NCBI RefSeq assembly: GCF_045055805.1
Contig: NZ_CP159330.1
Coordinates: 1,551,547-1,615,546, forward strand
From: Christiangramia sp. LLG6405-1
GTDB taxonomy: Bacteria > Bacteroidota > Bacteroidia > Flavobacteriales > Flavobacteriaceae
Length of the DNA: 64,000 bases
Direction: 5' to 3'
Shown: positions 24,501 through 40,324 of the stretch, piece by piece
Layout of the letters: every line of letters starts with the position of its first letter
Numbering within the stretch: the first letter of the stretch is position 1
Translations under genes and position numbers: made by a program
The notes under the pieces: model-generated
The model's database searches: none
What the model was told of the DNA's origin: nothing
The model's input: only the letters and a program-made list of their open reading frames with translations

Positions 24501-27500
24501 AAAATCAAAACCAAATTGAGAGAGCTCATCAAAGCGAAGATTAACTCGTCTATAATAATTATACCTGCCAAAATACCTATTCAGGTTGGTGCTTCGACCT
24601 AAATTATCAAAATATAAGGATGGATAATCAGATCTAAATCCAGTAAACCCGGTATCTGTATTCCACTCATCCTTTTTAAATTGATCAAGCGAAATATCAT
24701 ACATAGAAGCCAGAACTTCAGCTTCTTTTTTCTCACCTGGAGTTGATACATTAAAACTCCAGGTTTCTTCCAGTCCAGGTCTTATTTTATTTCTGAAGGT
24801 TTCCGTAGAGATTTCAAGATCTTCGGAATCTTTTCTGAAGTTTACAACCTCGCTAAATTCAATTTGCCGGTTGTTCATTACTGAAGAAAGAACCAGTTTA
24901 AATTCAGGGTCTTCCAGAGCTTTTAGCGGAATCTTCAATTTTAACTTCCCGTCAAGCTTATAGTATTCTCTAAAAATAGAAGTACGTCCGTTTCTGAACG
25001 CTGAAACGCGAATTCGTAAATTATTTATAGGAGAGCTGATCTCAACCTGCGCGTTTTCATCTGAAGCTAATGTTTCTTTATTGATAATACTTACCAGAAG
25101 ATCCTGATCGGTAAAGGCTTTATTACTTTTAGGATCCTGAATACTAATAACCTTTAGTAATTCTTCTGTTTTATTTTCATGTCGGAGTTCGAAACTTAGT
25201 AAGTAACTACCTTCTTTCCAATTTCTGGTAGCGATCTCATCCTCAAAATCCCCATCTGAATCAAAGGTGGATTCGTACACTTTCTCCAATTTTTCCCAGT
25301 TTTCTGGTTTAGTCAGCTTTCGGTAAGGTTCATTCGGGAATAATCTTTCAAATTCATCTTTAGAAATAAGTTCGAATTCAGGAGCCTCCCACCATCTTTC
25401 CTGGTAGTGCTTTTCAGGACTCTTGAGTCTATAGATCTTATAAGTACCCGTTGCAGGTACCTTTCGATCATTTAGATTTCTTGTTGCCAGATCGATTTTC
25501 AGCGTATCGTTAATATCAATCTTATCTGCAATTTCAAGCTTTGGAAGAAAATTCTTATTCCCGATTTTAAGCGACTGCTGTGCATCTCTCGTTTCTCCAC
25601 TCACATCGGTTACAGAGGCAGATACGGAGTATCGATATATAAGATCATTAAGGTTGGTGTTCTGGTCTGCATTCGCTTCAAAAGGAATGATAAATTCACC
25701 ATTTTCATCAGTTTCAGTAGCATCAGTTTTAATAATTACTGGATCTGAATAATAACTTCTCCACCACGAATAATTCATTCGTTCCCTGGTAACAGTGTAA
25801 GCAACTTTAAGATTAGGAAGCGAGGCACCAATATAAGCTTCAGCAGAACCCTTAAGTGCAATTTCTTCGCCTAACTCGTAAGCTTTATTTATGGTGTCAA
25901 AACTGACTTCAAAAGTTGGTCGTTTATATTCTTCAACACTAAAGTATTTGTAATCATCCTGAAAGTCATCCAACTCATCCCAGAAATCGGAATCAGTTTC
26001 AATATATTCTTCGGCATAAATAGAGAACTGGCCGGTAAGGTTATTGACTGGAAGATCAAAGCTACCTGTAAAAGATCCATACTCATTGGTCTTGAATCTA
26101 AATTCATGAATTTCATTTTCATTCGGGTCATCTACGAATACGTCTATATATTCATTAGGAACTACGCTGGTAGAATCATTTCTATGCTGAAGAAAAACAC
26201 CTTTAAAATGCACTTTCTGACCCGGACGGTAGATCGCACGATCCAGGAAGAAAAGTACCTTCGCCTGTGAATCTCGATCTTCATTATTACTATAATTATA
26301 ACGATTACCACCGCGGTTATAAGATGAAGAGTAGAAATCATCTCCCTCAGTAAATTCGGTATGTTCTTCCCAATATCGATTACCGGTATAGTTATCCAAT
26401 GCTATCTCACCATTAAGATCAGAGGTTCTGGAAAGGATGGTGGTATTGCCCTTTTTTACTCTTAGAACAACATCGTTTAGATTTTCTCCTGACTTTCGAT
26501 CAACTATATGAAACAGGTTCTTTTTCTCAAAATCTGTTCTGGAGACGGCAATGTTGGTTACCAGGTAAGTCCCGGAAGTATGATTGCCTTCTGAATCGTA
26601 TAAATGAACAAGATACCTTCCGAAGTCATTTTCCGGAATTACAATTTCAGTTGAATGTTCATTATAATCTGTTTCTCCTGGTAAAACGATCTGTACGCTA
26701 TCTGAAATTTTTGCAGCTTCTTTTTTTATAAAATCTGCTCTATCTCTATAATTTACCTTATCCAGGAAATTCATGCTAACCTTACCTATTTTCATATAGA
26801 TAGTATCTACATTTTTATAAGTAAGCTTAGTTCGACCTGGTTCATTCCGGGTCAGGATATTTTGCAATTGCGCCTCCAGACTTGGAGCGGTAAGTCCTTT
26901 CAATAGATTCTGAGCATTCTGCCGGGTAAGCGTATTGTTATAATTAGACTCAATAAGTTTTAAAAGATTAACAGCTTTAGCATTATAATCTGGATACTTC
27001 AGTAGTCCTTCTTTATCTCTTTCTGAAGCTTTTTCAGCATAGGCATTAGCCAGTTCAAACATAAGCTGAGCCTTAATTTTCCGGTCTTTAGAATTTTTTT
27101 CCAGCCTCTCAATAGCACTGATGTATTTCTGAAAGTCAGCATGAAATTCAGCATGAACAAACTCAATACGTTGTAGTTTCCAGTAATTTAGTGATACATC
27201 ACCTTTGTCTTTTGAGTGAATTCTTTCCAGTTCCTGATATTGTCGTAGAGCAAGCAGCTTTGAATTCTCAACCTCAGCAATTTCAGTATTTACAAATCGC
27301 GAGTCTGTAGCAAAAAGAACCTCTTCGTTAACTTCTGTTTTCGCAGCTTCAAATTCTAAATTGAAAAAGCTACCATCTTTAAGAAACTCCAGATAACGTC
27401 CAGCAAGAAGATCATAGATAGAAGGTCTGAAATCTCTGGTTATAGTTTTTGCATTTAAAAGCACATCAATTTCAGAATTGGAGAAATTAACAAGTTTGCC

Positions 27501-27977
27501 AGGATTGGCAACAGAATTTTTATGAGCTGTATGAATACTGTTTTTAATAGTTTCCAGAGACCAGGTAGTCAAATCTTTTTGATCTGGATCGTCAATCTGT
27601 TTCTGTTCGCGGCGGCTCCACCGGTTCTGTCTGTAATAATCACTTAGTAATTCAGCTTTGTAACTTTGAAGCACCTGATCAAATGGAAAAGGAATCTGAG
27701 CGATAGAATTGTTGATATCCTGAAGTATGTAGCTTTCAGCGTTTTCGTGATTGATCTGGTATAGACGGTAATGGTAGATCTTAGACTTAATAAGCTCATC
27801 ATACCTTTTATCATTTTTCGCGCGCTGCATTAAACTATTAGTACGCTCTAAGGCAGTCTCAACTTTTCCCACCTTCTCAAGTGAATTGATCTGTAGCCAA
27901 CTTTCTTTATAACTAGGGTTTTGAGCGAATAGTAAACTTTGGGATATGATGAAGATCCCTAAAAGCAATTTTTTCAT
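21525..27977 (-). CDS. Alpha-2-macroglobulin-family giant lipoprotein/secreted protein (2150 aa) with embedded CarbopepD_reg + TonB-Plug-like segment
   Basis: Signal peptide, MG-like repeats, and a thioester-type motif HDCSEQ (CxEQ). The central RVQGRVVDENGEPLPGVNVMVKGSS is a CarbopepD_reg motif, followed by the SusC-type VVVTGYG...LQGKVAGVEV...PLFIVDG...IYGSRAADGVVIITT. Confidence 0.8.
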   Translation of the reverse strand: MKKLLLGIFIISQSLLFAQNPSYKESWLQINSLEKVGKVETALERTNSLMQRAKNDKRYDELIKSKIYHYRLYQINHENAESYILQDINNSIAQIPFPFDQVLQSYKAELLSDYYRQNRWSRREQKQIDDPDQKDLTTWSLETIKNSIHTAHKNSVANPGKLVNFSNSEIDVLLNAKTITRDFRPSIYDLLAGRYLEFLKDGSFFNLEFEAAKTEVNEEVLFATDSRFVNTEIAEVENSKLLALRQYQELERIHSKDKGDVSLNYWKLQRIEFVHAEFHADFQKYISAIERLEKNSKDRKIKAQLMFELANAYAEKASERDKEGLLKYPDYNAKAVNLLKLIESNYNNTLTRQNAQNLLKGLTAPSLEAQLQNILTRNEPGRTKLTYKNVDTIYMKIGKVSMNFLDKVNYRDRADFIKKEAAKISDSVQIVLPGETDYNEHSTEIVIPENDFGRYLVHLYDSEGNHTSGTYLVTNIAVSRTDFEKKNLFHIVDRKSGENLNDVVLRVKKGNTTILSRTSDLNGEIALDNYTGNRYWEEHTEFTEGDDFYSSSYNRGGNRYNYSNNEDRDSQAKVLFFLDRAIYRPGQKVHFKGVFLQHRNDSTSVVPNEYIDVFVDDPNENEIHEFRFKTNEYGSFTGSFDLPVNNLTGQFSIYAEEYIETDSDFWDELDDFQDDYKYFSVEEYKRPTFEVSFDTINKAYELGEEIALKGSAEAYIGASLPNLKVAYTVTRERMNYSWWRSYYSDPVIIKTDATETDENGEFIIPFEANADQNTNLNDLIYRYSVSASVTDVSGETRDAQQSLKIGNKNFLPKLEIADKIDINDTLKIDLATRNLNDRKVPATGTYKIYRLKSPEKHYQERWWEAPEFELISKDEFERLFPNEPYRKLTKPENWEKLEKVYESTFDSDGDFEDEIATRNWKEGSYLLSFELRHENKTEELLKVISIQDPKSNKAFTDQDLLVSIINKETLASDENAQVEISSPINNLRIRVSAFRNGRTSIFREYYKLDGKLKLKIPLKALEDPEFKLVLSSVMNNRQIEFSEVVNFRKDSEDLEISTETFRNKIRPGLEETWSFNVSTPGEKKEAEVLASMYDISLDQFKKDEWNTDTGFTGFRSDYPSLYFDNLGRSTNLNRYFGRYNYYRRVNLRFDELSQFGFDFGQPNSYQYRNYLSTLKVSNKADSGARVQGRVVDENGEPLPGVNVMVKGSSVGAQTDFDGEFGIDAPKNSLLTFSFVGFVSQEYQLGDETEVFIDLEADSSSLDEVVVTGYGEAAAEEVMEVTEQESQSVALLQGKVAGVEVSRTGANTEFKIRGSSSISGSPLFIVDGKPVEDYELDSKDIVRVEILKGAEATAIYGSRAADGVVIITTSKSLEDLENVDARTNLQETAFFFPDLRLDENGSLSFSFTTPEALTSWKLRLLAHNSNWSTGELEKIVTTSKDLNVVPNAPRFLREGDSIIFKVKVTNLSSEPMTGNAVLKLFDAVTMEPADIPMGNTETLQAFQIQAGKTRVVSWKLFVPETIPAVTYRILAKAGDFSDGEENLLPVLKNRMLVYESIPLFVRAGETENFEFENLKSNDSETLKNHQFTFEYTSNPGWFALQSLPYLMEYEHDCSEQIFSKIFANSVGQKIVNSKPEIAEVYEAWRKDSSMVSNLQKNEELKSLLLAETPWVQDAESESLQQQRIGLLFETGRMDKELTSMMTRLRRMQNLSGAFPWFAGGRDNYYITSHIIEGFGKLKNMNIELDDRRILANAIAYLDKELMEQKKRRESENSTDFYKSYTVLAYAHTRSMHQEEFPIPAEQKDLVNKSLEYQKQRWTDYSLSEKAELAITLDRFGHSVEALEILESLKQTAVKSETYGMYWKENTASWRSFNTPVEVQSQIIQAFAEVSKDMESIEELKIWLIQNKRTNYWETTKSTTAAVYALLMQGMDILPVSSNTQFVIGGDKLDMEELSNTPAEAGSGYVKTTWKAGEFSEDFGNIKIENNNTTAGYGGAYWQYFENLDKIKTHSESPLNIEKELYLNTGNNELKRIDTDTPLKVGDLVSVRLVVRSEADMEFIHLKDMRASGFEPTNVISEHKYQNSTSYYESTRDAATHFFFDKLRKGTYVLEYTVRANNAGSFSNGISTIESMYAPEFSGHTSGIRVEITEQE

Positions 27978-28078
27978 AGGTAGCAGGTTAGGTTGTATAG
28001 CAATTAAAAGGTACTAAAAGATTTAGCACAGCAATAGTTATGCCTGTAATTTTACAACTTTATCTGAACCTTGAAAAT

Positions 28079-28843
28079 TTAATTATTGAGAGACGTACGC
28101 AGTTTATGAAATTCTTCCTCTAAAAAACTCATTTGTTGTTTAATGTCGGTATTCCTGCTATCTGGAATACGATGATAAAAGGCATATTTGATCTCCCAGA
28201 GCTCTTTTACATCGGCGTAAGGAATCTCAATATCTTCAATGCCTTTGTGATCTGCTTTTAAAATGAATTTTTTAGCCGACTGGTATATTCTTCTCAGGAA
28301 TACTTTTTCTTCGGAAACTACCAGGAACAAGCATGCACTCGCGAGATTTAGATATTGCTTCTTCTGAACTTTTACACCTATCACCACATCTTTCGGGTAA
28401 AATCCATCAGAATCTGTGCTCATTTCGAGGTCATGAATTACGAAAGCTCGTAGATCTGCCTCATCATAGATAGGTAGATGAATTTCCGGTAAATCTGCTA
28501 TAAAATTATCTTTAGTGTGATGCTGAATATATTCCTGTTGACCTTCCGGGGTGATGCAGGGCACTTTCTTGCAAATATTCGGTTTAGCTTTAAGGTCATC
28601 GTGCTCAGGTTTGCCTCTAAACTTCAGTAGTTCATTCACCGTAAGTTCGCTGGTAAGCAGATCATCTATAGGAATGCTAAAATAATTAGCAATCTTAATA
28701 ATGGTTTCTATCTTAGGTTCGCTTCGTCCTTCTTCATAAGCGCCCAGTGTACCACGTTTAAGATCAAATAGTTCAGCAAATGCTTGCTGACTCATACTAC
28801 GAACCGATCTTATTTTCCTGATGTTTTTTCCGAATAACGACAT
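28079..28843 (-). CDS. XRE-family HTH transcriptional regulator with C-terminal LexA/S24-like beta domain (possibly non-catalytic)
   Basis: N-terminal HTH_XRE (IRKIRSVRSMSQQAFAELFDLKRGTLGAYEEG). The C-terminal ~120 aa have S24-like topology but lack a clear Ser-Lys dyad. Confidence 0.6.
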   Translation of the reverse strand: MSLFGKNIRKIRSVRSMSQQAFAELFDLKRGTLGAYEEGRSEPKIETIIKIANYFSIPIDDLLTSELTVNELLKFRGKPEHDDLKAKPNICKKVPCITPEGQQEYIQHHTKDNFIADLPEIHLPIYDEADLRAFVIHDLEMSTDSDGFYPKDVVIGVKVQKKQYLNLASACLFLVVSEEKVFLRRIYQSAKKFILKADHKGIEDIEIPYADVKELWEIKYAFYHRIPDSRNTDIKQQMSFLEEEFHKLRTSLNN

Positions 28844-28846
28844 TAA

Positions 28847-28927
28847 TTGCTAATATTATTTGCAGAATTGAATATTTATTGTAAATTAGTCTAACAATAT
28901 TAGCAAATACATTTTACTATTGCTAAT
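28847..28927. promoter_or_regulatory. Operator-like repeats: TTGCTAATATT (28847-28857) / inverted copy AATATTAGCAA (28896-28906) / third TTGCTAAT (28920-28927)
   Basis: Perfect 11-bp inverted repeat with 38-bp spacing, plus a third half-site, in the divergent promoter region between the XRE regulator and the PspA operon. Confidence 0.45.
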
Positions 28928-29109
28928 TTTTTTAGTCTGAATCGTTCGAACACTCAGAGATCTGTTATTAACCAACTAAAGAATTAGAATTATGATCTCA
29001 TTTATTATCGATATAGCCACCGAGCTTATCACGTTTCTTTAACAAAGTCTTAATACTTTTTTGTATTATTAGGCTCTCAAAATAGTAGTACTAACCGTAA
29101 TAACCACCT

Positions 29110-29505
29110 ATGAAAAATCACTTTAATATTACGAGAGATTTTTTGCTGGAATTGAATTTTAATATCACCCGGGAGAATCCGGAAGATGGACTTTTAGTGA
29201 TTCAAAAAGAAAATTCTGGAATTAGAAATCTCATCGTAGGCGTTGCTCCGCCAATCTTAATTATGGAGCAGTACATTTTCAAGATCAATAACCAGTCTGA
29301 AAAGATATTTAAAAGTTTGTTGCAAAAGAATCGCGATATCGTTCACGGAGCTTTTGTGCTGGACGAGTCTGGTGAAAAAGTCATTTACCGCGATACCCTT
29401 CAGATTGAGAACATGGATCTGAACGAATTGGAAGGGAGCTTAAACTCACTCAGCTTATTAATGAGTGAATATTCAGATCATATCATAGAATTCTCAAAAT
29501 ATTAA
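29110..29505 (+). CDS. Hypothetical protein, first gene of PspA operon (tentatively YbjN/YjfI-like fold)
   Basis: 131 aa with no TM helix, ending 11 nt before pspA. Size and position parallel E. coli yjfI, which precedes the pspA paralog yjfJ. The fold assignment is tentative. Confidence 0.4.
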   Translation: MKNHFNITRDFLLELNFNITRENPEDGLLVIQKENSGIRNLIVGVAPPILIMEQYIFKINNQSEKIFKSLLQKNRDIVHGAFVLDESGEKVIYRDTLQIENMDLNELEGSLNSLSLLMSEYSDHIIEFSKY

Positions 29506-29516
29506 AATTCAGCATT

Positions 29517-30233
29517 ATGAACATCTTTAAGAGATTATTTAAAATAGGAGAGGCAGAAACAAATTCTGCCTTGGACAAAATGGAGGATCCAATCAAAATG
29601 ACCGAACAGGGCATTAGAGACATGAAACTTGACCTGGACAAAAGTTTGGAAGCATTGGCACAGGTGAAAGCACTTGCCATTAGAGCAAAGAACGACCAGG
29701 AGGAATTTCAGAATAAAGTGGACGATTACCAGAATAAAGCGATCATCATCCTGAAGAAAGCCCATTCGAAAGATATGGAACAGGCAGATGCAGATCGCCT
29801 TGCGCAGGAAGCTTTGGTGCAAAAAGAAGCAGCAGAGCAGCAGGTGCTAAGAGCTAAGGAAGAGTCGGTTAAATTCGATAATAACGTTGCTCAATTGCAA
29901 AAAAATATCCAGACCATAAAAGCAAATATCGGGAACTGGGAGAATGAACTCAAGACCCTAAAAGCAAGGGTTAAAGTATCGAATGCCACCAAGAACCTGA
30001 ATAAGCAAATGGCCGAACTTGATAGCACTGGTACGGTATCTATGCTGGAAAGAATGAAGGAAAAAGTAGCCCAGGAAGAAGCCCTGGCCGAGGCTTACGG
30101 AGATATTGCCAATGCTTCTAAATCCATCGATGAGGAAATTGATAAGGCGGCAGATACCTCAAAAGCAAAAGCAAGTGATGAACTGGCGAAGCTTAAAGAA
30201 CAACTTGGAATGAAAGATTCTAAAAACGAATAA
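29517..30233 (+). CDS. PspA/IM30/Vipp1 family protein (phage-shock protein A; bacterial ESCRT-III homologue)
   Basis: MNIFKRLFKIGEAETNSALDKMEDPIKMTEQGIRDM... is collinear with E. coli PspA ([36 protein letters not shown]). 238 aa, all-helical coiled coil. Confidence 0.9.
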   Translation: MNIFKRLFKIGEAETNSALDKMEDPIKMTEQGIRDMKLDLDKSLEALAQVKALAIRAKNDQEEFQNKVDDYQNKAIIILKKAHSKDMEQADADRLAQEALVQKEAAEQQVLRAKEESVKFDNNVAQLQKNIQTIKANIGNWENELKTLKARVKVSNATKNLNKQMAELDSTGTVSMLERMKEKVAQEEALAEAYGDIANASKSIDEEIDKAADTSKAKASDELAKLKEQLGMKDSKNE

Positions 30234-30235
30234 AC

Positions 30236-30946
30236 TTGGATAACCTAATCAACATACTTTTTTCAGAGGTAAACGTGATCCTGAGCGTGTTGCTCATGAT
30301 TCTAATCCTCTACTGGATCATCACTATGATAGGTGGTCTGGATTTCGATCCGGACTTCGATATCGATGTAGATGTGGATGCAGACGTGGATCTGGATTCT
30401 GGGATCGAAGGTGGAAATATGGATTTTGAAGATATTTCCAATACCGAGATCAATCAGGAAGACGTGGTTGGGAAGAGGCGAAAACCTTTAAAGTGGTGGC
30501 AGATATTTCTTATCTATTTCAATTTCGTGGGACTGCCATTTATGTTCACTTTTACTTTCTGGATCTTTGTCTGGTGGTTCATAACTACCCTGGTTACTGC
30601 GATCACTTCAAGCTATGATAACTTTATAGGTTTTGGGATCATGCTGCTGGCTTTATTTCCGGCACTATTCGTCACCAAGATACTTACCACACCTTTTAAA
30701 GGTTTCTTTAAAAACCTGAATAAGGACGGCGATGCACCCATCGACTATCTTGGTAGAAAGGCGACTTTGATGTCGACCATTTCAAAAGACAGGATGGGAA
30801 ATGCTGAGGTAAGCGTAAATGGTGATAGCTTATCTATTTACGTAAAATCACTTACTGGCGATGCACTCCCTTATGGAAGTAGTGTTCTTATTATCAAGCG
30901 GTCTCCAGATCGCAATTATTACCTCGTACAATCATATAACGAATAA
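30236..30946 (+). CDS. NfeD/YqiJ-like membrane protein (acidic DxD repeat loop, 3-4 TM, C-terminal OB-fold beta domain)
   Basis: TM helices, an acidic loop DFDPDFDIDVDVDADVDLD, and a C-terminal GRKATLMSTISKDRMGNAEVSVNGDSLSIYVKSLTGDALPYGSSVLIIKR (NfeD short-form OB-like). Sits 2 nt after pspA and 16 nt before the flotillin gene. Confidence 0.6.
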   Translation: MDNLINILFSEVNVILSVLLMILILYWIITMIGGLDFDPDFDIDVDVDADVDLDSGIEGGNMDFEDISNTEINQEDVVGKRRKPLKWWQIFLIYFNFVGLPFMFTFTFWIFVWWFITTLVTAITSSYDNFIGFGIMLLALFPALFVTKILTTPFKGFFKNLNKDGDAPIDYLGRKATLMSTISKDRMGNAEVSVNGDSLSIYVKSLTGDALPYGSSVLIIKRSPDRNYYLVQSYNE

Positions 30947-30962
30947 AACTAATCTAACTACA

Positions 30963-33038
30963 ATGGAATCAATCTTACCAATTATTGGAATTGGAATAGG
31001 CGTATTGCTATTTCTAATCATCGTTTACTTCGCGATCATCGCGATGTTCTACAAAAAAATTCCCCAAGGACAGGCACTCATCAGGACCGGTTTTGGAGGG
31101 ACAAAGGTCGCTACAGATAAAGGTCTGTATACGGTGCCTGTTTTTCATAAAACCGAGATCATGGATATTTCTGTCAAGAAGATCCAGATCGAAAGACTGG
31201 CGCATGAAGGTCTTATTTGTAGAGACAATATGCGTGCAGATATCAAAGTTGCCTTTTTCGTTCGGGTGAACAATGATATTGAATATATTAAAAAAGTAGC
31301 GCAGACTATAGGTGTGGACCGTGCATCTAAAATTGCCACGCTGGAAGATCTTTTTGAAGCAAAGTTTTCAGAAGCATTAAAGACAGTAGGTAAAAAATTC
31401 GATTTTATCGAGCTTTATGAAGCCAGACGTGAATTTAGAGATGAGATCGTAAATATCATTGGGACAGATCTTAATGGCTATACACTTGAAGATTGTGCGA
31501 TCGATTTCCTGGAGCAGACTTCAGTAAAAGAATTAAAGCCAGACAATATTCTGGATGCGGAAGGGATCAAGAAGATCACCGAGCTTACGGCAGTTCAGAA
31601 TATGAAAGCTAACCTTATCAAGCGTGATGAGGAAAAAACCATCAGAAAGCAAGATGTGGAAGCCAGAGAAGCCATTCTTGAACTGGATAAGCAATTAGCT
31701 GAAAAAGAAGAGCAACAGAAACGTGAAATTGCGAATATCAAAGCTCGTGAAACTGCAGAAACTCTGAAAGTAGACGAAGAAGAAAGACTAAAATCTGAAA
31801 CTGCCAGAATTGCTACGGAAGAAAAAGTAAAGGTTGCTGAAGAAAATATGCAACGCCAGATCATCGTAGCACTTAAAAATAAAGAGCGTACCGATGCTGT
31901 GGAGTCTGAAAGAGTTGAAAAAGACAGGTTACTAGAAGCTACCGAGCGTGAAAGAGTGGTAACTCTCGCACAAATCGAGAAAGAGAAGGTTGTTGAGGTT
32001 GAGAAGAAAAACATCCAGGATGTGATTCGCGATCGTGTAATGCTGGAAAAAGGAGTGGTAGAAGAGCAGGAAAACATGAAAGATATCCAGGCATTTAAAA
32101 CTGCCGACAGGGATAAGCAGGTTAAAATTACTACTGCGGAAGCATCTGCTCAGGAAGAACTTATTAAAACCACGATTGCTGCGGAAGCTCAAAAAGAAGC
32201 TGCCAAGCAAAAAGCCGAAGAGATCAATATCGAAGCACTTGCTCACAAAGAAGCCAGCCAGAAACAAGCTGAAGCGAGAAAAATTCTTGCTGAAGCCCAG
32301 GCGAAAGAAGAAGCAACTGTTGGTATGTCTGAAGCTCAGGTAATGCATGCGAAGGCTGATGCCAACGAGCGTCAGGGACTTGTAGAAGCGAATATCATCG
32401 AGAAAAAAGCACGTGCTGAAGCGGCCGGGATGGAAGCCAAAGCAGATGCTAAACGTAAAGATGGACTTGCCGAAGCAGATATAATTAAAGAGAAAGCGAT
32501 AGCTGATGCTTCAGGAATCGAGGAGAAAGCTGCTGCAATGAAGAAACTGGATGGTGTTGGAAAAGAACACGAAGAGTTCAAATTAAGACTGAACAAAGAT
32601 CTTCAGGTAGATCTTGCCAATATCAATATTCAGAAGGAAATCGCAGATGCACAGGCGCAGGTAATTGGAGATGCGTTGAAAGCTGCTAAGATCGATATCG
32701 TTGGTGGAGAAACTATGTTCTTCGATCAAATCGTTGGCCAGATCACCAGAGGTAAAGGTTACGACAGGCTAGTACAGAACTCTACGAACATCCAGGAGGT
32801 AAAAACTGCTATTCTTGGTAGTGAAGATGTAAAAGGGAATCTGCTTGAAAAAGTAAGAGACTTCGCGTCTAAATATGGAGTAAGTACCGAGGATATTAAA
32901 AACCTTAGTATTGCCTCTCTTATTACAGATCTTAAAATAAAATCTGATGATAAGGAAGAGCAAACCATGCTCGGCAATCTTCTGAACCTGGCGAAAGGCC
33001 TGGGAATTCAGGATAAACCGATCTCAAAACTTAGATAA
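30963..33038 (+). CDS. Flotillin / SPFH (band-7) family protein, YqiK-like (691 aa)
   Basis: N-terminal TM helix, an SPFH domain (PQGQALIRTGFGGTKV...), and a long EA/K-rich flotillin-type coiled coil. The track start at 30861 overlaps the previous gene, so the ATG at 30963 is preferred. Confidence 0.85.
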   Translation: MESILPIIGIGIGVLLFLIIVYFAIIAMFYKKIPQGQALIRTGFGGTKVATDKGLYTVPVFHKTEIMDISVKKIQIERLAHEGLICRDNMRADIKVAFFVRVNNDIEYIKKVAQTIGVDRASKIATLEDLFEAKFSEALKTVGKKFDFIELYEARREFRDEIVNIIGTDLNGYTLEDCAIDFLEQTSVKELKPDNILDAEGIKKITELTAVQNMKANLIKRDEEKTIRKQDVEAREAILELDKQLAEKEEQQKREIANIKARETAETLKVDEEERLKSETARIATEEKVKVAEENMQRQIIVALKNKERTDAVESERVEKDRLLEATERERVVTLAQIEKEKVVEVEKKNIQDVIRDRVMLEKGVVEEQENMKDIQAFKTADRDKQVKITTAEASAQEELIKTTIAAEAQKEAAKQKAEEINIEALAHKEASQKQAEARKILAEAQAKEEATVGMSEAQVMHAKADANERQGLVEANIIEKKARAEAAGMEAKADAKRKDGLAEADIIKEKAIADASGIEEKAAAMKKLDGVGKEHEEFKLRLNKDLQVDLANINIQKEIADAQAQVIGDALKAAKIDIVGGETMFFDQIVGQITRGKGYDRLVQNSTNIQEVKTAILGSEDVKGNLLEKVRDFASKYGVSTEDIKNLSIASLITDLKIKSDDKEEQTMLGNLLNLAKGLGIQDKPISKLR

Positions 33039-33046
33039 ATGGAAAT

Positions 33047-33076
33047 GCCGGTGCCTGGCACCGGCTTCTTTTTTAA
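33047..33076 (+). terminator. Strong intrinsic terminator (GCCGGTGCC-T-GGCACCGGC + TTCTTTTTT)
   Basis: 9-bp GC-rich perfect inverted repeat plus a T-tract, 9 nt after the flotillin stop and before the ATPase gene. Confidence 0.7.
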
Positions 33077-33113
33077 TCTACATCAATTACATCACAAACT
33101 TCAGGAAGACAAC

Positions 33114-36100
33114 ATGGCAAAGGAACCCATAAAGGAAGAGAATGCGCAAAAACTGGATGTTGGTACCTACGAGGTGATCCAGGGCAGACTGCAAAAGCAA
33201 AAAACTGAGTTACAATCCCGACTTCAGAAATTAAATGAAGAGCGGCAGAAGGTTTTTGGTTCTTTGGAAACCAGGCTTATCGCCAATGACCGCATCAATA
33301 CCGAAAACAACTGTATCGCGAGGGATATCGTTTCCCTTGGCAATACCTGCATTTTTGGTTACAATGTGCATTTTGGTTTGCGTACAGAGATCTCTTTGAA
33401 TGATGTAATGAGTATTTACAGGTTTGAGAATAATTCTTTTGAAGCCATCGATACAGATCTACTGAAAAACGATGTTTTCGAATCTGATTTCAAAAATCTT
33501 TACAAGTATTACAGAAACACCATTTTCTCGAAATTCGCTGTAATTGGAAACTATCTTTATATGGTTTTCCGGTTAAGTGAGAGTGTAACCGATATCAAAA
33601 CCTTCAAATGGCTTATTAAAGATGAAGGTTTGCAATATGTGGACAATCGTAGTGATCACGAATACAAACTACCGTCACAACATGAATTCAACTGGCAGGA
33701 AGTATCCAGAGATCAACATAGGCAGGGAGTTCATGCGCATGTTTCTATTCTGGATCGTGTTTTTGTAGAGACCATTGGCGGTGATCTTACAATCAAGATC
33801 GAGGATAATACCAATGATGGAAAAGGAATCTTTTCCGAAGAAGTAGAGCATAGGGACCAAACGCTGGATGACGCACAGTATAGATTTGCGAATCTTGGTA
33901 ATCTCATCATTCTTGAAATTAAACCATTTCAGGAAGGGCCGCGTTATTTTGTGTATAATCACAAGCTGCGGGAAGTTCAAAAGATCAGCAGTATCAAGGA
34001 TACCTGTGTATTGTTACCAGACGGCCAGGGAATAATTTTCCCAACCGGGTATTACTTACAAACCGGGGAATATCATTTGTTCGATCATAGCATTCCGAAT
34101 TTAAGATTTCAGGAAAAGATAAGTTCTCCAAATGGCGAGGATTTTCTGTACGTATTCTACGCTCCGGAAAACGGACTCTACAACCTGATGAGCTATAATG
34201 TGATCTCCCAGGAAATCCAGACTCCAATTATTTGTAATGGTTTTACGATTCTTGAAAAAGGCGAACTATGCTATTTCAAGAACGAAAATGAACAAACCAA
34301 GCATCATGTGATCCAGATCTGGCAAACGCCATATCTTAAAGGTGATTTTATGCCTTCCAGTCATGAGGATAGCCTGTTATATAAGATCGGAAACAAGGAT
34401 ATTGTAAAAGCGATGGCTGAGGTAAACGGACTCGTAAATCTTCTAAATAAAGAGGATAATTATGATGGTTTGTATGCAGATCTTTCCAAGCGTTCCAAGG
34501 ATATTCTGGATGCTTATTACTGGCTGAAAGAAGAGGAAACTCAGCTTCTAAATGAGCCACTTCGGGAAATTAACCAGGCTGCAAATGCTGCCATGGATGA
34601 ATTTCAGAAGGTGCTGGAACTCAAGAAGAATGCTAGGCAGAAAACTAACGAAATAGGGAAAGAAGCCGAGCAAATCTTTAATAAGATAAAAAGTTCAGGT
34701 TTTCGGAATATCAATGATTTCGTAATTGCATTGACGCAGCTCAGGTCATTAAGAGGAGAAGCGATCAGTCTCAAAGAAGTACGTTATGTAGATGAGCAAT
34801 TTATTGAAAACCTTGAAGAGCAAATAGCCGAGCAAACTACAAAGATCTCGCGAAGATGCGTGGATTTCTTACTGGATGAGAAAGCTCTGAATCCATATCA
34901 CAAAGCAGTAAGTGATAAGGAAGAGCAGCTATCTGATATTAATAAGGTAGTTGATGCCCGAAAACTGGAGGAAGAAGTCAATAAAATTTCAGAAGATCTT
35001 GAATTATTAATTGATATTGTTTCAAATCTTGAAATAGAGGATACTTCGCATTCTACCAAGATTATCAATAATATTTCACTAATTTTTTCTTCGATCAACC
35101 AGTTAAAGGCAGAGATCAGGAAGAAGCGAAAATCCCTTGGAAGTGCAGAAGCTCAAGCCGACTTTGCCGCGCAATTAAAGCTTATCGATCAAAGTATCAT
35201 CAACTACCTTGACATCGCTGATACTCCGGAAAAATGTGATGACTTTCAAACCAGGATTTCCATTCAGCTAGAAGAATTGGAGGGAAAGTTTGCCGATTAT
35301 GAGGAATTTATTGAGCTGATTATTGAGAAGCGGGAAGAAGTTTATAATGCATTTGAAGCTCGTAAGAATACACTCGTAGAAAAACGAAATAAACGTGCGG
35401 TAACTTTACAAAATTCCGCAGGAAGAATCCTGAAAGGTGTTCGTAAGAAATCTGAATCTTTTAATGAAGTAGCAGATATCAATGCTTATTTCGCTTCAGA
35501 TATCCTGGTGAACAAAGCCAGAGATATTGCCACGCAACTACAGGAAATGGATGACAGTGGAAAGGCTGAAGAAATTCAGTCGATGCTGAAGTCTGCCCGC
35601 GAAGATGCACTTCGAAAACTGAAGGATAAGAAGGAAATTTACGAGGATGGCGATTCGATCATCAAGCTGGGGAAACATAAATTTGGCGTTAATAAACAGG
35701 AGCTTGATCTTACGATCTTATTCGTGGACGATGCTTTGCATTATCATATAACAGGAACCGACTTTTATCAGAAAATTGAAAATGAGACTCTTCTAAAGTC
35801 TGAAAGATTCTGGAGCCAGGATTATATTTCAGAAAACAAGAGTATATACCGAGCCGGTTTTCTTGCCTATAAATTATTCCGAAGATTTGGTGAAGAACTA
35901 AAGGACCATACGGAGGAAGATTTGATCAGGCTAGTGCAGGAGGAAAGTAGCAAAGATTATTCTGAAGGATACGTGAAAGGAATTCATGATCTGGATGCGG
36001 CAAAAATACTATCTGTGCTTCTGGAAAAGCATGAGGCTTTGGATCTGCTTCGGTTTCACCCCGTAATCAGGTCCTGCGCACAATTCTTCTGGAAATTTTC

Positions 36101-37991
36101 TTCTTCGGAAATCCGGTCAAATTTGGATCAGAATATAAAAGCTGCGGGAGAAGTGTTGCAGGTATTTCCAAATTCCAGAGAATACCAGTCATTGCTGAAA
36201 ATACTAACCAAAGAGATTCAAGATTTTGGTCAGAAATCAGGAATTTTTGAACCTGAACTGGCTTCTGAAGTTGCTGAATATTTGTTTGAAGAATTGCAAA
36301 ATGATGATGATTTTCAAAAAAGCGGAATAGCCATCGGGATCAAAGAAGATTTCCTGAATATGCTGAAGTCTGAAAATGCCGATCTAAAATTTAAAGATAG
36401 TCTCAAAAGCCTGAGTTCAAACCAGGCAAAAGTAGCCTTGATCGAGCAGTGGTTGAAAGCATTTTTGCAAAGCAAACTAGATGATCAAACGAGCTTAAAA
36501 ACCAAATATGTAAGTGAAGCAGCAGCGCTTATACTCTTTGAGGATGAATCTGTCTTAAATACAAAATTTACTTCACCATCTCAGCATATTGAGAATTTGA
36601 GAGGTGAGCATCGCCTGGTCAAAGCAGGAGTTTTCGATTTCAACTATCATGATTTTGTATCGACTTACAGGAACTATTTTGAGATCGATGTTCCAGCTTA
36701 CCACGAATTTAGAAAAGCCAGGCATGAAGTAACCCTTCAGCTTAAAGAAGATCTTAAACTTGAAGAATTCAAGCCGGGAACACTAAACTCTTTTGTTCGA
36801 AATAAATTGATAGACCAGGTTTATTTTCCTCTATTTGGAGATAACCTGGCCAAACAGCTCGGTACCGTTGGAGATCAAAAAAGAACAGATCGAATGGGAT
36901 TGCTGTTGCTTATTTCTCCTCCAGGTTACGGTAAAACTACCTTAATGGAATATATCGCCAACAGGCTTGGACTGGTTTTTATGAAAATCAATGGTCCGGC
37001 GATTGGTCATGATGTAACTTCAGTAGACCCATCTTCAGCTACTAATTCGGCAGCCCGGGAAGAGCTTAAAAAGCTGAATCTTGCCTTTGAAATGGGGAAT
37101 AATGTGATGCTGTATCTTGACGATATCCAGCATTGTAATCCTGAATTCCTTCAGAAGTTTATATCTCTTTCCGACGGAACCAGGAAAATCGAAGGGATTT
37201 ACAATGGGAGATCGAGAACCTATGATATGCGTGGGAAAAAGTTCTGCGTGATCATGGCCGGGAATCCTTATACAGAAAGCGGAGAGAAGTTTCGAATTCC
37301 AGATATGCTGGCGAACCGTGCAGATATTTACAATCTTGGTGATATTATTGGCGATACCGCTCATCTGTTCAGGTTGAGTTTGATCGAAAATTCACTGACC
37401 TCCAATCCTGTTCTGCATCAGCTTAGTAGCAAGAATTTTGATGATGTTTACAGATTACTGGACAGAATTGAGAATAATAACCAGGAAGTACAGCTGGAAG
37501 GGAATTACTCGAACCAGGAAGTACAGGAATATGTGTCGGTTCTGGAAAAGGTTATACAGATTCGAAACAGTGTATTGAAAGTGAATGCGGCTTATATCAA
37601 AAGTGCTGCGATGGAGGATGAGTATCGAACAGAGCCATCTTTCAAATTGCAGGGTTCTTATCGTGATATGAATAAACTGGTGGCAAAAGTGGTTCCGGTA
37701 ATGAATGATGCGGAATTGCAAACGCTTATTCTGTCGCATTATGAAAGCGAATCTCAAACCCTTACTTCAGCTGCGGAAGCAAACTTATTGAAATACAAAG
37801 ATCTTATTGGCAATTTGAACGAAGAGGAACGGAGCAGATGGAATACCATTCAGGAAACTTTTCAGAAGAATAATAAACTAAAAGGTTTTGGGAACAAAAA
37901 TGAGATGGCGCAATTGCTTTCTCAAATGATGGAATTCACAGATAATCTTGAGGGTATTAAACAGGTGTTGCAAAATGGATTTAATAAGTGA
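33114..37991 (+). CDS. Giant (1625 aa) multidomain protein: beta-rich N-terminal domain + ~700-aa coiled coil + C-terminal AAA+ ATPase (MoxR/AAA_5-like)
   Basis: Walker A LLLLISPPGYGKTTL, Walker B VMLYLDDIQ, sensor-1-like FCVIMAGNPYTE, and Arg-rich RIPDMLANRADIY. The central region is heptad-like and E/K-rich. The track start at 33039 lies inside the terminator hairpin, so the ATG at 33114 is preferred. Confidence 0.7.
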   Translation: MAKEPIKEENAQKLDVGTYEVIQGRLQKQKTELQSRLQKLNEERQKVFGSLETRLIANDRINTENNCIARDIVSLGNTCIFGYNVHFGLRTEISLNDVMSIYRFENNSFEAIDTDLLKNDVFESDFKNLYKYYRNTIFSKFAVIGNYLYMVFRLSESVTDIKTFKWLIKDEGLQYVDNRSDHEYKLPSQHEFNWQEVSRDQHRQGVHAHVSILDRVFVETIGGDLTIKIEDNTNDGKGIFSEEVEHRDQTLDDAQYRFANLGNLIILEIKPFQEGPRYFVYNHKLREVQKISSIKDTCVLLPDGQGIIFPTGYYLQTGEYHLFDHSIPNLRFQEKISSPNGEDFLYVFYAPENGLYNLMSYNVISQEIQTPIICNGFTILEKGELCYFKNENEQTKHHVIQIWQTPYLKGDFMPSSHEDSLLYKIGNKDIVKAMAEVNGLVNLLNKEDNYDGLYADLSKRSKDILDAYYWLKEEETQLLNEPLREINQAANAAMDEFQKVLELKKNARQKTNEIGKEAEQIFNKIKSSGFRNINDFVIALTQLRSLRGEAISLKEVRYVDEQFIENLEEQIAEQTTKISRRCVDFLLDEKALNPYHKAVSDKEEQLSDINKVVDARKLEEEVNKISEDLELLIDIVSNLEIEDTSHSTKIINNISLIFSSINQLKAEIRKKRKSLGSAEAQADFAAQLKLIDQSIINYLDIADTPEKCDDFQTRISIQLEELEGKFADYEEFIELIIEKREEVYNAFEARKNTLVEKRNKRAVTLQNSAGRILKGVRKKSESFNEVADINAYFASDILVNKARDIATQLQEMDDSGKAEEIQSMLKSAREDALRKLKDKKEIYEDGDSIIKLGKHKFGVNKQELDLTILFVDDALHYHITGTDFYQKIENETLLKSERFWSQDYISENKSIYRAGFLAYKLFRRFGEELKDHTEEDLIRLVQEESSKDYSEGYVKGIHDLDAAKILSVLLEKHEALDLLRFHPVIRSCAQFFWKFSSSEIRSNLDQNIKAAGEVLQVFPNSREYQSLLKILTKEIQDFGQKSGIFEPELASEVAEYLFEELQNDDDFQKSGIAIGIKEDFLNMLKSENADLKFKDSLKSLSSNQAKVALIEQWLKAFLQSKLDDQTSLKTKYVSEAAALILFEDESVLNTKFTSPSQHIENLRGEHRLVKAGVFDFNYHDFVSTYRNYFEIDVPAYHEFRKARHEVTLQLKEDLKLEEFKPGTLNSFVRNKLIDQVYFPLFGDNLAKQLGTVGDQKRTDRMGLLLLISPPGYGKTTLMEYIANRLGLVFMKINGPAIGHDVTSVDPSSATNSAAREELKKLNLAFEMGNNVMLYLDDIQHCNPEFLQKFISLSDGTRKIEGIYNGRSRTYDMRGKKFCVIMAGNPYTESGEKFRIPDMLANRADIYNLGDIIGDTAHLFRLSLIENSLTSNPVLHQLSSKNFDDVYRLLDRIENNNQEVQLEGNYSNQEVQEYVSVLEKVIQIRNSVLKVNAAYIKSAAMEDEYRTEPSFKLQGSYRDMNKLVAKVVPVMNDAELQTLILSHYESESQTLTSAAEANLLKYKDLIGNLNEEERSRWNTIQETFQKNNKLKGFGNKNEMAQLLSQMMEFTDNLEGIKQVLQNGFNK

Positions 37992-38180
37992 TTCCTAACT
38001 AGCTGGTCTAACCTAAAAACATAGAAATCGTAGAACAATTGTTAAAAAGCGCCATTATTAACATGATTTACTGGAATAGAGTCAAAATCTTGCTTTTTAC
38101 ATGGTTATTTAATTACTGAATATTCAAACTCTTTATATATATTGGAATCTATTAAAAAAACCAACTTTAATAATAACTTT

Positions 38181-39215
38181 ATGAAGAAGAATTTTAATTT
38201 TTTTAGAGGTTTAACAACAGTAGCAGCTTTGGCTTGTGTATTGTTTATGACTTCTTGTTCAGATGAACCGGTAGATAATTCTGTTTCAAGCCTTAAAACA
38301 GAAAACGCAAAAGCGTTTACACTGGCTAATGCAGAGACAGATTTTGTTACACTAGAAGGGAAAGCTGGTGCGTTTGAAAATGGAACTCGTACAACTACAG
38401 CTCCAGGTGATGATCGAGGTAGATTCAATATTACTTTTAGATACCTCACTCAGCTTACAGATAGGCAGCTTAGTGTTTTTGAATCTGCGGCGGCAAGATG
38501 GGAAAGGATTATTATCAAAGATGTTCCTTCTATTACTGGAACAATTCCTTCTGCGTTTGGAGGAGTGCCACCTATTGTGGAAAATGGAACTATAGATGAT
38601 ATTGTAATTGAAGTAGTGATTGCGCCAATTGATGGTCCAGGACAGGTTTTAGGCCAGGCAGGACCTCGTTTTACGAGAACTTCTGATGGTTTAACCGTAA
38701 CCGGGTTGATGTTTTTTGACGTAGATGATTTAGATTTTCTTGATGAACTAGATCTTTTTGAAGATGTGATCGTGCATGAAATGGGTCACGTATTAGGGGT
38801 AGGAACGCTTTGGAGAGGTAAAGGTCTTATTGGTGGTCCAGACTCAAATCCATACTTTACTGGTAAAAAAGCTAATGTATTCTGGAATGCCGAAGGTGGA
38901 GAATTTGAACTTCCTATAGAAAATGCTGGTGGTCCTGGTACTGCATTAGGTCATTGGAGAGAATCTCTTCTTAGAAATGAGCTGATGACTGGATTCATCA
39001 ATCTTGGAGAAAATCCTTTAAGTAGAATTACGGCCGGTTCTTTAAGAGATCTTGGATATGGATCATCATCTGTAGGAGAGAGCTACGATTTGCCAAAAGG
39101 TACTCCAGGGGTAAATATTGGTGAATTAGCTAAATCCTCTGAAGTTAATGGACTACATATTGCAAAAATGGAAGAAATTCTACTTCCTATTGGAACTATT
39201 CGTACAGCAAAATAA
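38181..39215 (+). CDS. Zinc metalloprotease lipoprotein (HExxH; leishmanolysin/M8-like)
   Basis: Lipobox LFMTSCS, zinc motif VIVHEMGHVLGVG, and a downstream H...E arrangement. Confidence 0.5.
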   Translation: MKKNFNFFRGLTTVAALACVLFMTSCSDEPVDNSVSSLKTENAKAFTLANAETDFVTLEGKAGAFENGTRTTTAPGDDRGRFNITFRYLTQLTDRQLSVFESAAARWERIIIKDVPSITGTIPSAFGGVPPIVENGTIDDIVIEVVIAPIDGPGQVLGQAGPRFTRTSDGLTVTGLMFFDVDDLDFLDELDLFEDVIVHEMGHVLGVGTLWRGKGLIGGPDSNPYFTGKKANVFWNAEGGEFELPIENAGGPGTALGHWRESLLRNELMTGFINLGENPLSRITAGSLRDLGYGSSSVGESYDLPKGTPGVNIGELAKSSEVNGLHIAKMEEILLPIGTIRTAK

Positions 39216-39266
39216 CCTTCGCTGTAGCTTAATATCTTGATTGAAGATAAATGAATTTCATACTCA

Positions 39267-39312
39267 AAAGAGCCTTGTTTGCTGAAATGCTGAATGAGGC
39301 TCTTTTATTTTG
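39267..39312 (+). terminator. Possible terminator (AAAGAGCC...GGCTCTTT + T-rich tail, large loop)
   Basis: 8-bp stem with a 23-nt loop and a T-tract, 50 nt after the protease stop. Confidence 0.35.
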
Positions 39313-39424
39313 TCTCCTTTTTACCTTTCTACATTATTGCTTAGGTCTAAAATCACATATCATTTAATTTTCAGTTTTCAATTAAATGACAGAACTTTCG
39401 AAGTTCTAACCAAACCAACTTTTT

Positions 39425-40303
39425 ATGGCCTCAGGATTTTTTACTTTACTGGATGATATTGCTGCATTGATGGATGATGTTGCGGTGATGAGCAAAGTTG
39501 CCGGTAAGAAAACTGCCGGATTGCTTGGTGATGACCTTGCTGTAAATGCAGAAAAAGCCAGCGGATTTATTTCTGATAGAGAATTGCCAGTATTATGGGC
39601 GATCACTAAAGGTTCCCTTTTAAACAAGCTGATCATTCTGCCGGTCGCGTTTTTACTGAGTGCGTTTGTTCCGGTGGCTATAAAGATCATACTCCTTATT
39701 GGTGGATTGTACCTGGCTTATGAAGGTGCAGAGAAGATCCATGAATACTTGTTTCCTCATAAACACGCGAAATCCACACCTGTTCCAGAAGATCTTACAA
39801 AAGAACAGATGTTAGAACGAGAAGATGAGAAAGTAAAATCGGCTATACTTACAGATTTCATACTTTCTGTAGAGATTGTGATCATTGCTTTAGGAACCGT
39901 AGGCGGAGAGGAGTTACCAACTCAAATTGGAGTAGTAAGTGTAATTGCGCTTGTAGCTACCGTTGGAGTTTATGGAGTGGTTGCTCTTATCGTAAGGATG
40001 GACGAATTCGGAGCCAAGCTTATCAATATGAATGAGCAAACGGATAGCTTTTCAGATAAAGTAGGTAAATTTTTAGTGAATGCATTGCCATGGGTAATCA
40101 AGGGATTGGCGCTTATTGGTACAATAGCCTTGATGTTGGTTTCCGGAGGGATTTTCGTGCATAATCTTGAATTTATACATGATCAGGTACATTCTTTACC
40201 AACTATTCTTGGGGAATTCCTGGTTGGACTAGTTGTAGGAGCAATTGTTTTACCCCTGGTTGGACTGGGGAAAAAGATATGGAAGTCGGTTTCCAACAAA
40301 TAA
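39425..40303 (+). CDS. DUF808 (YedI-like) inner-membrane protein
   Basis: MASGFFTLLDDIAALMDDVAVMSKVAGKKTAGLLGDDLAVNAEK is the YedI/DUF808 N-terminus. Confidence 0.7.
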   Translation: MASGFFTLLDDIAALMDDVAVMSKVAGKKTAGLLGDDLAVNAEKASGFISDRELPVLWAITKGSLLNKLIILPVAFLLSAFVPVAIKIILLIGGLYLAYEGAEKIHEYLFPHKHAKSTPVPEDLTKEQMLEREDEKVKSAILTDFILSVEIVIIALGTVGGEELPTQIGVVSVIALVATVGVYGVVALIVRMDEFGAKLINMNEQTDSFSDKVGKFLVNALPWVIKGLALIGTIALMLVSGGIFVHNLEFIHDQVHSLPTILGEFLVGLVVGAIVLPLVGLGKKIWKSVSNK

Positions 40304-40324
40304 ATTTCAAATTTAAATACATTC

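Follow-up and report, generated by a model that had tools for sequence, protein, structure and literature searches.

In the 64,000 nucleotides (nt) of Christiangramia sp. LLG6405-1 analysed here (contig NZ_CP159330.1, positions 1,551,547 to 1,615,546; hereafter the window), a six-gene cassette at 28079-37991 encodes a divergent XRE-type regulator, a CesT/Tir-like chaperone, PspA, a YqiJ/YuaF-type membrane protein, a YqiK-like flotillin and a giant AAA+ ATPase. The cassette is a member of the published class of CesT/Tir–PspA–YqiJ/YuaF–flotillin–giant AAA+ operons and does not constitute a new kind of system. It is best explained, with a probability of about 0.55, as an operon built of two modules in which the ATPase partners a flotillin/YqiJ scaffold. 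Under the refinement with the strongest support, the giant ATPase would be a MoxR/dynein-like partner of this scaffold, to which PspA would have been added later in Bacteroidota. The cassette consists of the following features:

28079-28843, minus strand: divergent regulator, 254 amino acids (aa); open reading frame (ORF) call, with an XRE helix-turn-helix (HTH) at the N-terminus, an S24-like C-terminal domain and a short C-terminal helix
28844-29109, no strand: divergent control region; 266-nt spacer with TTGCTAAT boxes and a putative promoter
29110-29505, plus strand: CesT/Tir-like chaperone, 131 aa (Pfam CesT_Tir_1)
29517-30233, plus strand: PspA/IM30 (bacterial ESCRT-III-type, YjfJ-like), 238 aa (Pfam PspA_IM30)
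30236-30946, plus strand: YqiJ/YuaF-type membrane protein, 236 aa, TTG start (AlphaFold model, Foldseek, ortholog profile)
30963-33038, plus strand: YqiK-like flotillin, 691 aa (Band_7; YqiK homology)
33047-33075, plus strand: intrinsic-terminator-like hairpin and T-tract between flotillin and ATPase (fold prediction)
33114-37991, plus strand: giant soluble ATPase, 1625 aa (DUF3686, DUF7902, AAA / AAA_5)

The intergenic gaps along the plus-strand genes, from the CesT-like gene to the ATPase gene, were 11, 2, 16 and 75 nt. The ORF calls agreed in coordinates, lengths and the first three gaps with an earlier description of the locus made from its sequence (the original prediction). The reading of the locus as a membrane-remodelling or envelope-stress cassette, put forward there, was supported by the gene identities obtained with Pfam, profiles and a structure model. 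No experimental characterisation of the cassette was known to the original prediction, which added that comparative surveys might already have noted a PspA-AAA+ association. Such a survey published the same gene order in 2024 (PMC11237479), so that the cassette is not undescribed; experimental work was not found in the literature searched.

Ravi et al. 2024 (mSystems, PMC11237479) described a CesT/Tir-PspA operon with a YqiJ/YuaF-type protein of three transmembrane (TM) segments, a flotillin and an AAA+ protein. Their Table S3 gives, for Dokdonia donghaensis ANH61663.1, the series cHTH+protease, CesT_Tir, PspA, YqiJ-YuaF, Band-7/flotillin and beta-propeller+coiled-coil+AAA+, with the 'cHTH+Protease' gene divergent. 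Dokdonia belongs to the same family, Flavobacteriaceae, and all six genes of its operon, the divergent regulator among them, agree with those of the window in order and orientation; there was no architectural difference between the two. Shortened flotillin-YqiJ(-ATPase) operons were reported from other lineages (Ravi et al. 2024, PMC11237479), and for Acidobacteriota, Popp et al. 2022 (PMC9239133) mentioned PspA together with band-7/FloT and NfeD. Added here are the locus counts, by which the triad of YqiJ-like protein, flotillin and ATPase is the core across six phyla and the PspA module is confined to Bacteroidota. Also added are the fold placement of the AAA+ module, the loss of the S24 catalytic pair, conserved operator boxes and a variable flotillin-ATPase junction.

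Species-representative genomes were scanned with a 24-sequence ATPase alignment, which yielded 80 loci in six phyla. The ORFs called in these loci were searched iteratively with the six proteins of the window. Upstream DNA of 3.5 kb or more was available in 65 of the loci, and 61 of these had the order YqiJ-like gene, flotillin gene, ATPase gene on the same strand (Bacteroidota 40/42, Planctomycetota 7/7, Verrucomicrobiota 8/9, Clostridia 4/4, Kiritimatiellota 1/1, Desulfobacterota 1/2). Upstream of the ATPase gene in Bacteroidota, PspA was present in 32/41, CesT in 31/41 and a divergent XRE gene in 32/41 loci; in the five other phyla, none of the three was found there (0/23 loci). One Chryseobacterium locus kept the XRE gene and had lost CesT-PspA. 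Because the triad was kept in six phyla and the PspA, CesT and XRE genes in Bacteroidota alone, the conserved functional unit is, as judged from gene order, the YqiJ–flotillin–ATPase triad, with CesT-PspA-XRE as a Bacteroidota-specific add-on. The original prediction was to count as refuted if the ATPase gene showed no conserved linkage to pspA/flotillin in related genomes; its linkage to flotillin proved strongly conserved, so the prediction withstood this test. C. forsetii KT0803 contained an identical cassette between different flanking genes, which marks the cassette as a discrete unit.

The ATPase matched DUF3686 in Pfam with an E-value of 6.9e-180 (residues 32-469, nt 33207-34520). Further along come DUF7902 (residues 590-674, nt 34881-35135) and a middle part rich in helices, and the C-terminus holds an AAA+ module (nt ~36876-37613; AAA / AAA_5, residues 1264-1388). 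An NCBIfam scan of the cassette proteins added nothing specific. Hydropathy revealed no TM segment in the ATPase, and Pfam no MIT domain. Residues ~480-1240 were poor in Pro/Gly and rich in E/K/Q/R/L/A. The coiled coil of ~700 residues proposed originally is supported in part, a clear heptad signal being confined to residues ~400-800. Self-comparison of the N-terminal domain profile detected no internal repeats; the beta-propeller label is the assignment of Ravi et al. The family is large, with at least 5027 members (matches at E ≤ 1e-10 among 8000 candidates scored), and the DUF3686 domain had 716 representatives at 50% clustering. The closest named relatives were from Gramella/Christiangramia (82% identity), followed by Formosa/Tamlana (~79%), Dokdonia (~71%) and other classes of Bacteroidota (~50%).

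Across 24 ATPase homologs from several phyla, with identities down to 29%, the Walker A motif GYGKTT (Lys1274, 36933-36935), the Walker B residues Asp1336-Asp1337 (37119-37124; not the usual Asp-Glu), Asn1384 at the sensor-1 position and Arg1402 were invariant. Since these motifs are invariant, the protein is likely an active enzyme. The AlphaFold model of residues 1180-1625 (mean pLDDT 82.5) contained a beta-hairpin between the Walker B and sensor-1 strands. Within the AAA+ proteins, a pre-sensor-1 beta-hairpin of this kind is the mark of the ClpX/Lon/RuvB and MoxR/MCM/dynein groups; the classical clade, to which Vps4 belongs, is not known to have it. In a structure comparison, the fold of the module was closest to the MoxR-type remodelling ATPases CbbQ (score 16.4) and NorQ (16.2), followed by Midasin (14.7), Dynein (13.5), ClpA (13.2) and Vps4 (11.5-11.6). 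Both the AAA_5 profile match and the MoxR-like fold place the module in the MoxR/AAA_5 group. Sequence similarity to CbbQ, NorQ, midasin and dynein was marginal, however, and the Walker B Asp-Asp sets the protein apart from them; searches of the PDB with the single sequence or a profile returned only P-loop-sized matches. Midasin and dynein carry six AAA+ modules per chain, in contrast to the single module found here.

The membrane protein was harder to identify. Direct Pfam and NCBIfam scans gave no NfeD or YqiJ match even at E ≤ 10, the PDB held nothing similar by sequence, and a shallow profile compared with YqiJ was insignificant. A profile of 52 orthologs from the related loci matched E. 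coli YqiJ along its whole length, in 188 aligned columns (probability 96.7%, E 3.8e-10), and 21/52 orthologs individually matched Pfam YqiJ_N; homologs bear the source names 'DUF1449 family' and 'OB-fold-containing'. The AlphaFold model (35 homologs, mean pLDDT 67) comprised three TM helices, also backed by hydropathy, and an acidic loop without order (residues 34-84); its C-terminal domain had five strands (residues ~175-233, pLDDT about 75-84). The top three Foldseek matches of this domain in the PDB were NfeD OB domains: B. subtilis YuaF (2K14, E 9e-5), P. horikoshii 1510-C (PH1510-C, 3WWV) and MTH693 (2K5H). A YqiJ-like membrane protein with an acidic DxD loop and an NfeD-type OB domain, as originally proposed, is thus supported by the structure model, Foldseek and the ortholog profile. 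The acidic DxDxD repeat loop (30338-30487, residues 35-84), for which divalent cations or a basic partner may be the ligand, was kept across phyla in a 52-sequence consensus; its counterpart in E. coli YqiJ is far shorter. A metagenomic representative of the ATPase family (P0139, 1345 aa) carried NfeD1b_N (residues 74-215) fused 5' of DUF3686 and DUF7902. This single case is suggestive of a link between the NfeD and ATPase families, but could be a gene-calling artefact.

Directly downstream of the YqiJ-like gene lies the SPFH gene, whose product was confirmed as flotillin-related by Band_7 (Pfam, E 1.5e-13) and homology to YqiK. Its N-terminal anchor (one TM-like segment, residues 1-34) is followed by the SPFH/Band-7 domain and a long helical stretch rich in Glu/Ala, and its C-terminal part is conserved. 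It shared 30% identity with E. coli YqiK over 446 aa (E 3e-47), and a profile aligned to YqiK residues 26-423 (probability 100%, E 4.5e-41), so that homology extends past the SPFH domain. The PDB contained nothing similar by sequence. The Pfam Flot C-terminal model (PF15975) matched 0/33 flotillin orthologs; YqiK matched it at 6.4e-41. Ravi et al. called the C-terminus of the proteins of this operon class a flotillin domain (PMC11237479). From these matches, a careful label for the 691-aa protein would be YqiK-like SPFH / flotillin-like. Between Flavobacteriaceae and Clostridia/Verrucomicrobiota/Planctomycetota, the flotillin was unusually conserved (51-55% identity), and the YqiJ-like protein shared 19-34%. 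The E. coli yqiJ-yqiK locus has the same gene order and lacks the DUF3686 ATPase, PspA, CesT-like and XRE genes; its flotillin is 138 aa shorter than that of the window.

A parallel for the proposed pairing of an SPFH scaffold with an AAA+ ATPase is HflK/C–FtsH. FtsH is a membrane-anchored AAA protease of the classical clade, and HflK/C faces the periplasm. The ATPase here differs from FtsH in being soluble, in lacking a detected protease domain and in its MoxR/dynein-like fold, while the flotillin body, with its one N-terminal anchor, is predicted to be cytoplasmic, in contrast to HflK/C. HflK/C–FtsH, in which an SPFH cage encloses the AAA+ machine, is the only well-studied precedent for such a pairing (PMC13220708).

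The first two plus-strand genes belong to the Bacteroidota-specific part. The 131-aa protein matched CesT_Tir_1 (PF22550) almost end to end (positions 1-130 of 131, E 1.5e-56, 190.4 bits against a cut-off of 27) and had no TM-like segment by hydropathy; its gene lay directly 5' of PspA in 31 Bacteroidota loci. The identity of the next protein as a PspA/IM30 homologue, noticed in the original prediction, was confirmed by PF04012 (residues 2-229, E 4.5e-41, 141.3 bits against a cut-off of 33.9), and it aligned with E. coli YjfJ over the full length, N-terminal and C-terminal helices included (25% identity, E 1e-8). A small cytosolic protein directly 5' of a YjfJ-type PspA is also encoded in E. 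coli yjfI-yjfJ. The parallel between the 5' gene and yjfI drawn originally held for gene position and superfamily, and failed in pairwise comparison, where no similarity between the CesT-like protein and YjfI was detected. This lack of similarity is consistent with the statement that YjfI and the CesT/Tir-like proteins form two distinct CesT/Tir-type families of one superfamily (Ravi et al. 2024, PMC11237479), in which both small proteins are thereby placed. The YjfI family is DUF2170 and the small protein of the window CesT_Tir_1. The E. coli operon also differs in going on to the polyamine-related yjfK, yjfL, yjfM and yjfC, without flotillin or ATPase.

The original prediction proposed an ATPase that could act on PspA polymers as Vps4 acts on ESCRT-III; flotillin and YqiJ would then serve as a membrane platform. 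As with Vps4 and ESCRT-III, an AAA+ gene stands beside a gene of the ESCRT-III superfamily, and PspA was co-oriented in the cassette in 32/41 Bacteroidota loci. In addition, bacteria appear to lack a Vps4-like ATPase according to a 2025 review (PMC7619361), and PspA-AAA+ associations may serve ATP-dependent membrane remodelling (Ravi et al., PMC11237479). This neighbourhood is limited to Bacteroidota, however: PspA was nearby in 0/23 loci outside them, while the triad persisted. Vps4 has an MIT domain and a classical-clade fold, whereas the ATPase had no MIT match in Pfam and its model, with the pre-sensor-1 beta-hairpin, falls into a different structural group of AAA+ proteins. E. coli YjfJ, encoded in an operon without such an ATPase, also has the conserved C-terminal helix of this PspA. 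We therefore disfavour a bacterial Vps4 counterpart and consider it unlikely. That the ATPase gene is an independent neighbour, transcribed on its own past a real terminator and unrelated in function to the upstream operon, would fit the hairpin and T-tract at 33047-33075, present also in C. forsetii and about ten other loci, and the unrelated genes inserted at the junction in several genomes. We give this explanation little credence in view of the same-strand adjacency in 61/65 loci of six phyla, the overlapping or 11-12-nt junctions in Clostridia, the lack of a promoter-like motif in the 48 nt before the ATPase ATG and the movement of the cassette as a unit between different flanks.

Two further explanations concern the function of the whole system or of its largest protein. 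Defence islands often contain XRE regulators and giant ATPases, and an anti-phage or conflict system consisting of a large coiled-coil NTPase and membrane effectors under an XRE switch would agree with this and with the variable flanking genes. In PADLOC, the HTH weakly matched control proteins and capH, and the P-loop weakly matched mad8. As these were only generic HTH and P-loop matches, the defence assignment was rejected; CesT, YqiJ and flotillin matched no PADLOC model, PspA reached only 12.8 bits to JetC, and no nuclease or toxin domain was detected. Moreover, the cassette occurred in most of the Flavobacteriaceae genera sampled and ATPase identity dropped with taxonomic distance, which looks like vertical inheritance rather than patchy carriage on islands. 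A defence role is very improbable on these grounds. The least probable explanation is a DNA-repair ATPase, which would accord with the database names ('DNA repair ATPase' and 'ATPase involved in DNA repair' in NCBI/UniRef), with the Pfam description of DUF3686 and with a RuvB-like Walker A region. The similarity to RuvB spanned only ~36 residues around the P-loop, Pfam detected no DNA-binding or nuclease domain, and the conserved neighbours are membrane proteins; in the literature searched, no paper mentioning DUF3686 was found. Apart from the RuvB-like P-loop nothing supports the database name, which we take to be wrong.

Several points weigh against a flotillin/YqiJ scaffold as the partner of the ATPase. 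The 80 loci were picked by ATPase similarity and are silent on the share of flotillin pairs that lack the ATPase. One such pair, E. coli yqiJ-yqiK, exists, which implies that the flotillin pair can work alone. Four of the 65 loci broke the pattern: one had a flotillin gene without a detected YqiJ, and in three (L025, L037, L055) the ATPase had unrelated neighbours and no alternative SPFH partner. Known MoxR ATPases work with VWA-domain partners, and neither a VWA nor a MIDAS partner turned up among the conserved neighbours of the ATPase in the 80 loci. Given the Asp-Asp Walker B, hydrolysis could be slow, regulatory or regulated. In many Bacteroidota, the hairpin or inserts at the junction may uncouple expression of the ATPase from that of flotillin. 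Finally, no experimental study of any cassette component was found in the literature searched.

The junction itself was variable. In the window, the hairpin at 33047-33065 had 8 bp, of which 7 were G-C, and a 3-nt loop, followed by TTCTTTTTTA; its predicted folding energy was -17.2 kcal/mol (z = -2.7 against shuffled sequences). The GC hairpin and T-tract noted originally after the flotillin gene are thus present, with a stem of 8 bp rather than 9 bp. C. forsetii had a hairpin of other sequence and a T run in the same place, and in about ten Bacteroidota loci a hairpin and T-tract lay just past the flotillin stop codon. Across these loci the structure, as predicted, is conserved and its sequence is not. 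The 48 nt that separate the T-tract from the ATPase start codon in the window showed no Bacteroidota-type promoter-like motif. The gap between the flotillin and ATPase genes was 20-130 nt in many loci; the overlap or 11-12-nt spacing found in Clostridia implies that the two are co-translated from a single mRNA. The junction was also a hot spot for insertions (L001, L004, L009, L014, L038, L042, L050, L062, L073), with the ATPase gene still downstream. By eye, the inserts were IS200-type transposases, DUF559-like and GIY-YIG-like genes and small membrane proteins, and the enlarged gaps of relatives held a miscellany of unrelated inserts with no shared extra component. The hairpin is probably a terminator or attenuator. 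We prefer to read it as a partial terminator that would set the flotillin:ATPase ratio.

The divergent XRE/S24-like regulator and its inverted-repeat operator, both recognized in the original prediction, were supported by the HTH, S24 matches of orthologs and clustered conserved TTGCTAAT boxes. The N-terminus matched HTH_19 (5.9e-12) and HTH_3 (8.2e-11) in Pfam. The window protein itself had no Pfam Peptidase_S24 match; 20/33 orthologs did (best 4e-9), and a moderate-confidence hhalign alignment with LexA was obtained (E 3.5e-5, probability 72%). The regulator thus shares the HTH and S24-like fold of the self-cleaving LexA/CI repressors, but not their conserved Ser/Lys pair. The LexA Ser119 column was variable (S/T/V/F/Q) and the Lys156 column was Arg in the window and in the Flavobacteriaceae orthologs read, so the S24-like domain appears to be without the catalytic pair and is probably a non-cleaving sensor or dimerisation domain.

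In the control region, TTGCTAAT boxes stood as inverted and direct repeats at 28847-28854 (+), 28899-28906 (-) and 28920-28927 (+), i.e. three copies inside 81 nt, against six across the whole window. In 13 Flavobacteriaceae, the blocks TTGCTAAT..ATTTGCA, CTAACAATATTAGC and GCTAATTTTTTTAG were invariant or nearly so within a divergent, AT-rich spacer. Between the first two blocks lies TTTG (28859-28862), followed 19 nt on by TAAATTAG (28882-28889), for which relatives had TATATTTG. The promoter consensus of Bacteroidota is of the -33/-7 type, and by match to it TTTG and TAAATTAG are a putative Bacteroidota-type promoter. The three conserved boxes flank this element, an arrangement that would suit a repressor acting over a promoter. 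A sigma-70 promoter scan, whose consensus is ill-suited to Bacteroidota, gave no excess of matches (34 against 27.9 ± 5.3 in shuffled sequence). An Rfam search of 27900-38300 (E ≤ 1) matched no RNA family, so that neither a riboswitch nor a leader of a known kind was detected in the 266-nt spacer. A second conserved box at 29053-29068 (TTTTGTAWTATTA; TTTTGTATTATTA), ~45-50 nt 5' of the CesT-like ATG, was present in most Flavobacteriaceae relatives; it may act as a proximal promoter or as another regulatory site.

The genes around the cassette were not part of the conserved unit, as no gene was conserved 3' of the ATPase or matched the window flanks in the 80 loci. At 21525-27977 (-), a 2150-aa bacterial alpha-2-macroglobulin-like protein (MG2, A2M, bMG10) with a CarboxypepD_reg domain has a TonB-receptor Plug domain embedded at residues 1186-1363, an odd domain mix; its gene showed no conserved adjacency to the cassette. 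The region 38142-41182 (+), 3' of the ATPase gene, encodes a 357-aa protein, a DUF808 membrane protein and an MscS-type mechanosensitive channel, none of which was kept beside the cassette in related loci. The 357-aa protein had a weak leishmanolysin (M8) match and, by eye, an HExxH motif and a secretion signal. Directly 3' of the ATPase gene in four Bacteroidota loci (L008 6277-10196, L026, L050, L068) was a four-gene block that includes multi-pass membrane proteins and a likely lipoprotein and by eye resembles the DUF4178/DUF350/spermidine-synthase-like PspA-associated operon of Ravi et al.

From the identities, folds, motifs, synteny and boxes described above, we infer the protein-protein contacts, ATPase substrate, topology and regulation of a two-module mechanism. 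The first module would comprise the YqiJ-like protein, the YqiK-like flotillin and the DUF3686 ATPase. Through its cytoplasmic NfeD-type OB domain, the three-TM YqiJ would bind and organise a flotillin oligomer at the inner membrane, on its cytoplasmic side. The soluble ATPase would dock on this assembly via its N-terminal domain and long helical arm, and its MoxR/dynein-like AAA+ ring, driven by ATP, would assemble, disassemble or recycle the flotillin/YqiJ scaffold or its clients. The hairpin after the flotillin gene would probably lower transcription of the ATPase relative to the structural proteins. The second module, the Bacteroidota add-on, would combine the CesT-like chaperone and PspA with the divergent XRE/S24-like repressor. 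In the absence of a signal, this repressor would probably sit on the three TTGCTAAT boxes flanking the putative promoter and so silence the operon. As its Ser/Lys pair is not conserved, binding of a ligand or partner would be a likelier route of release than self-cleavage. The CesT-like chaperone would hold PspA soluble until its delivery to the membrane.

We tentatively extend this to the hypothesis, which we hold to be somewhat unlikely in this full form, that the dedicated task of the DUF3686 ATPase is to remodel cytoplasmic flotillin/NfeD scaffolds with energy from ATP, that it resembles a one-module midasin/dynein with a long helical lever, and that the Bacteroidota version recruits a chaperone-guarded PspA under one stress switch. 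Bacterial flotillins and PspA have both been studied widely as organisers of membranes. We know of no account of how flotillin assemblies are dismantled or recycled, and if the hypothesis is true, the ATPase would be the first motor known on a bacterial flotillin assembly. In Bacteroidota, SPFH scaffolds would then be coupled to membrane repair of the ESCRT-III type. The 2025 review in which a Vps4-like ATPase appears absent from bacteria also leaves the regulation of PspA polymers open (PMC7619361), a gap that would be filled if the ATPase is a motor of flotillin scaffolds and perhaps, in Bacteroidota, of PspA too. The locus offers a well-defined experimental target, with the likely partner of the ATPase corrected from PspA to flotillin/YqiJ.

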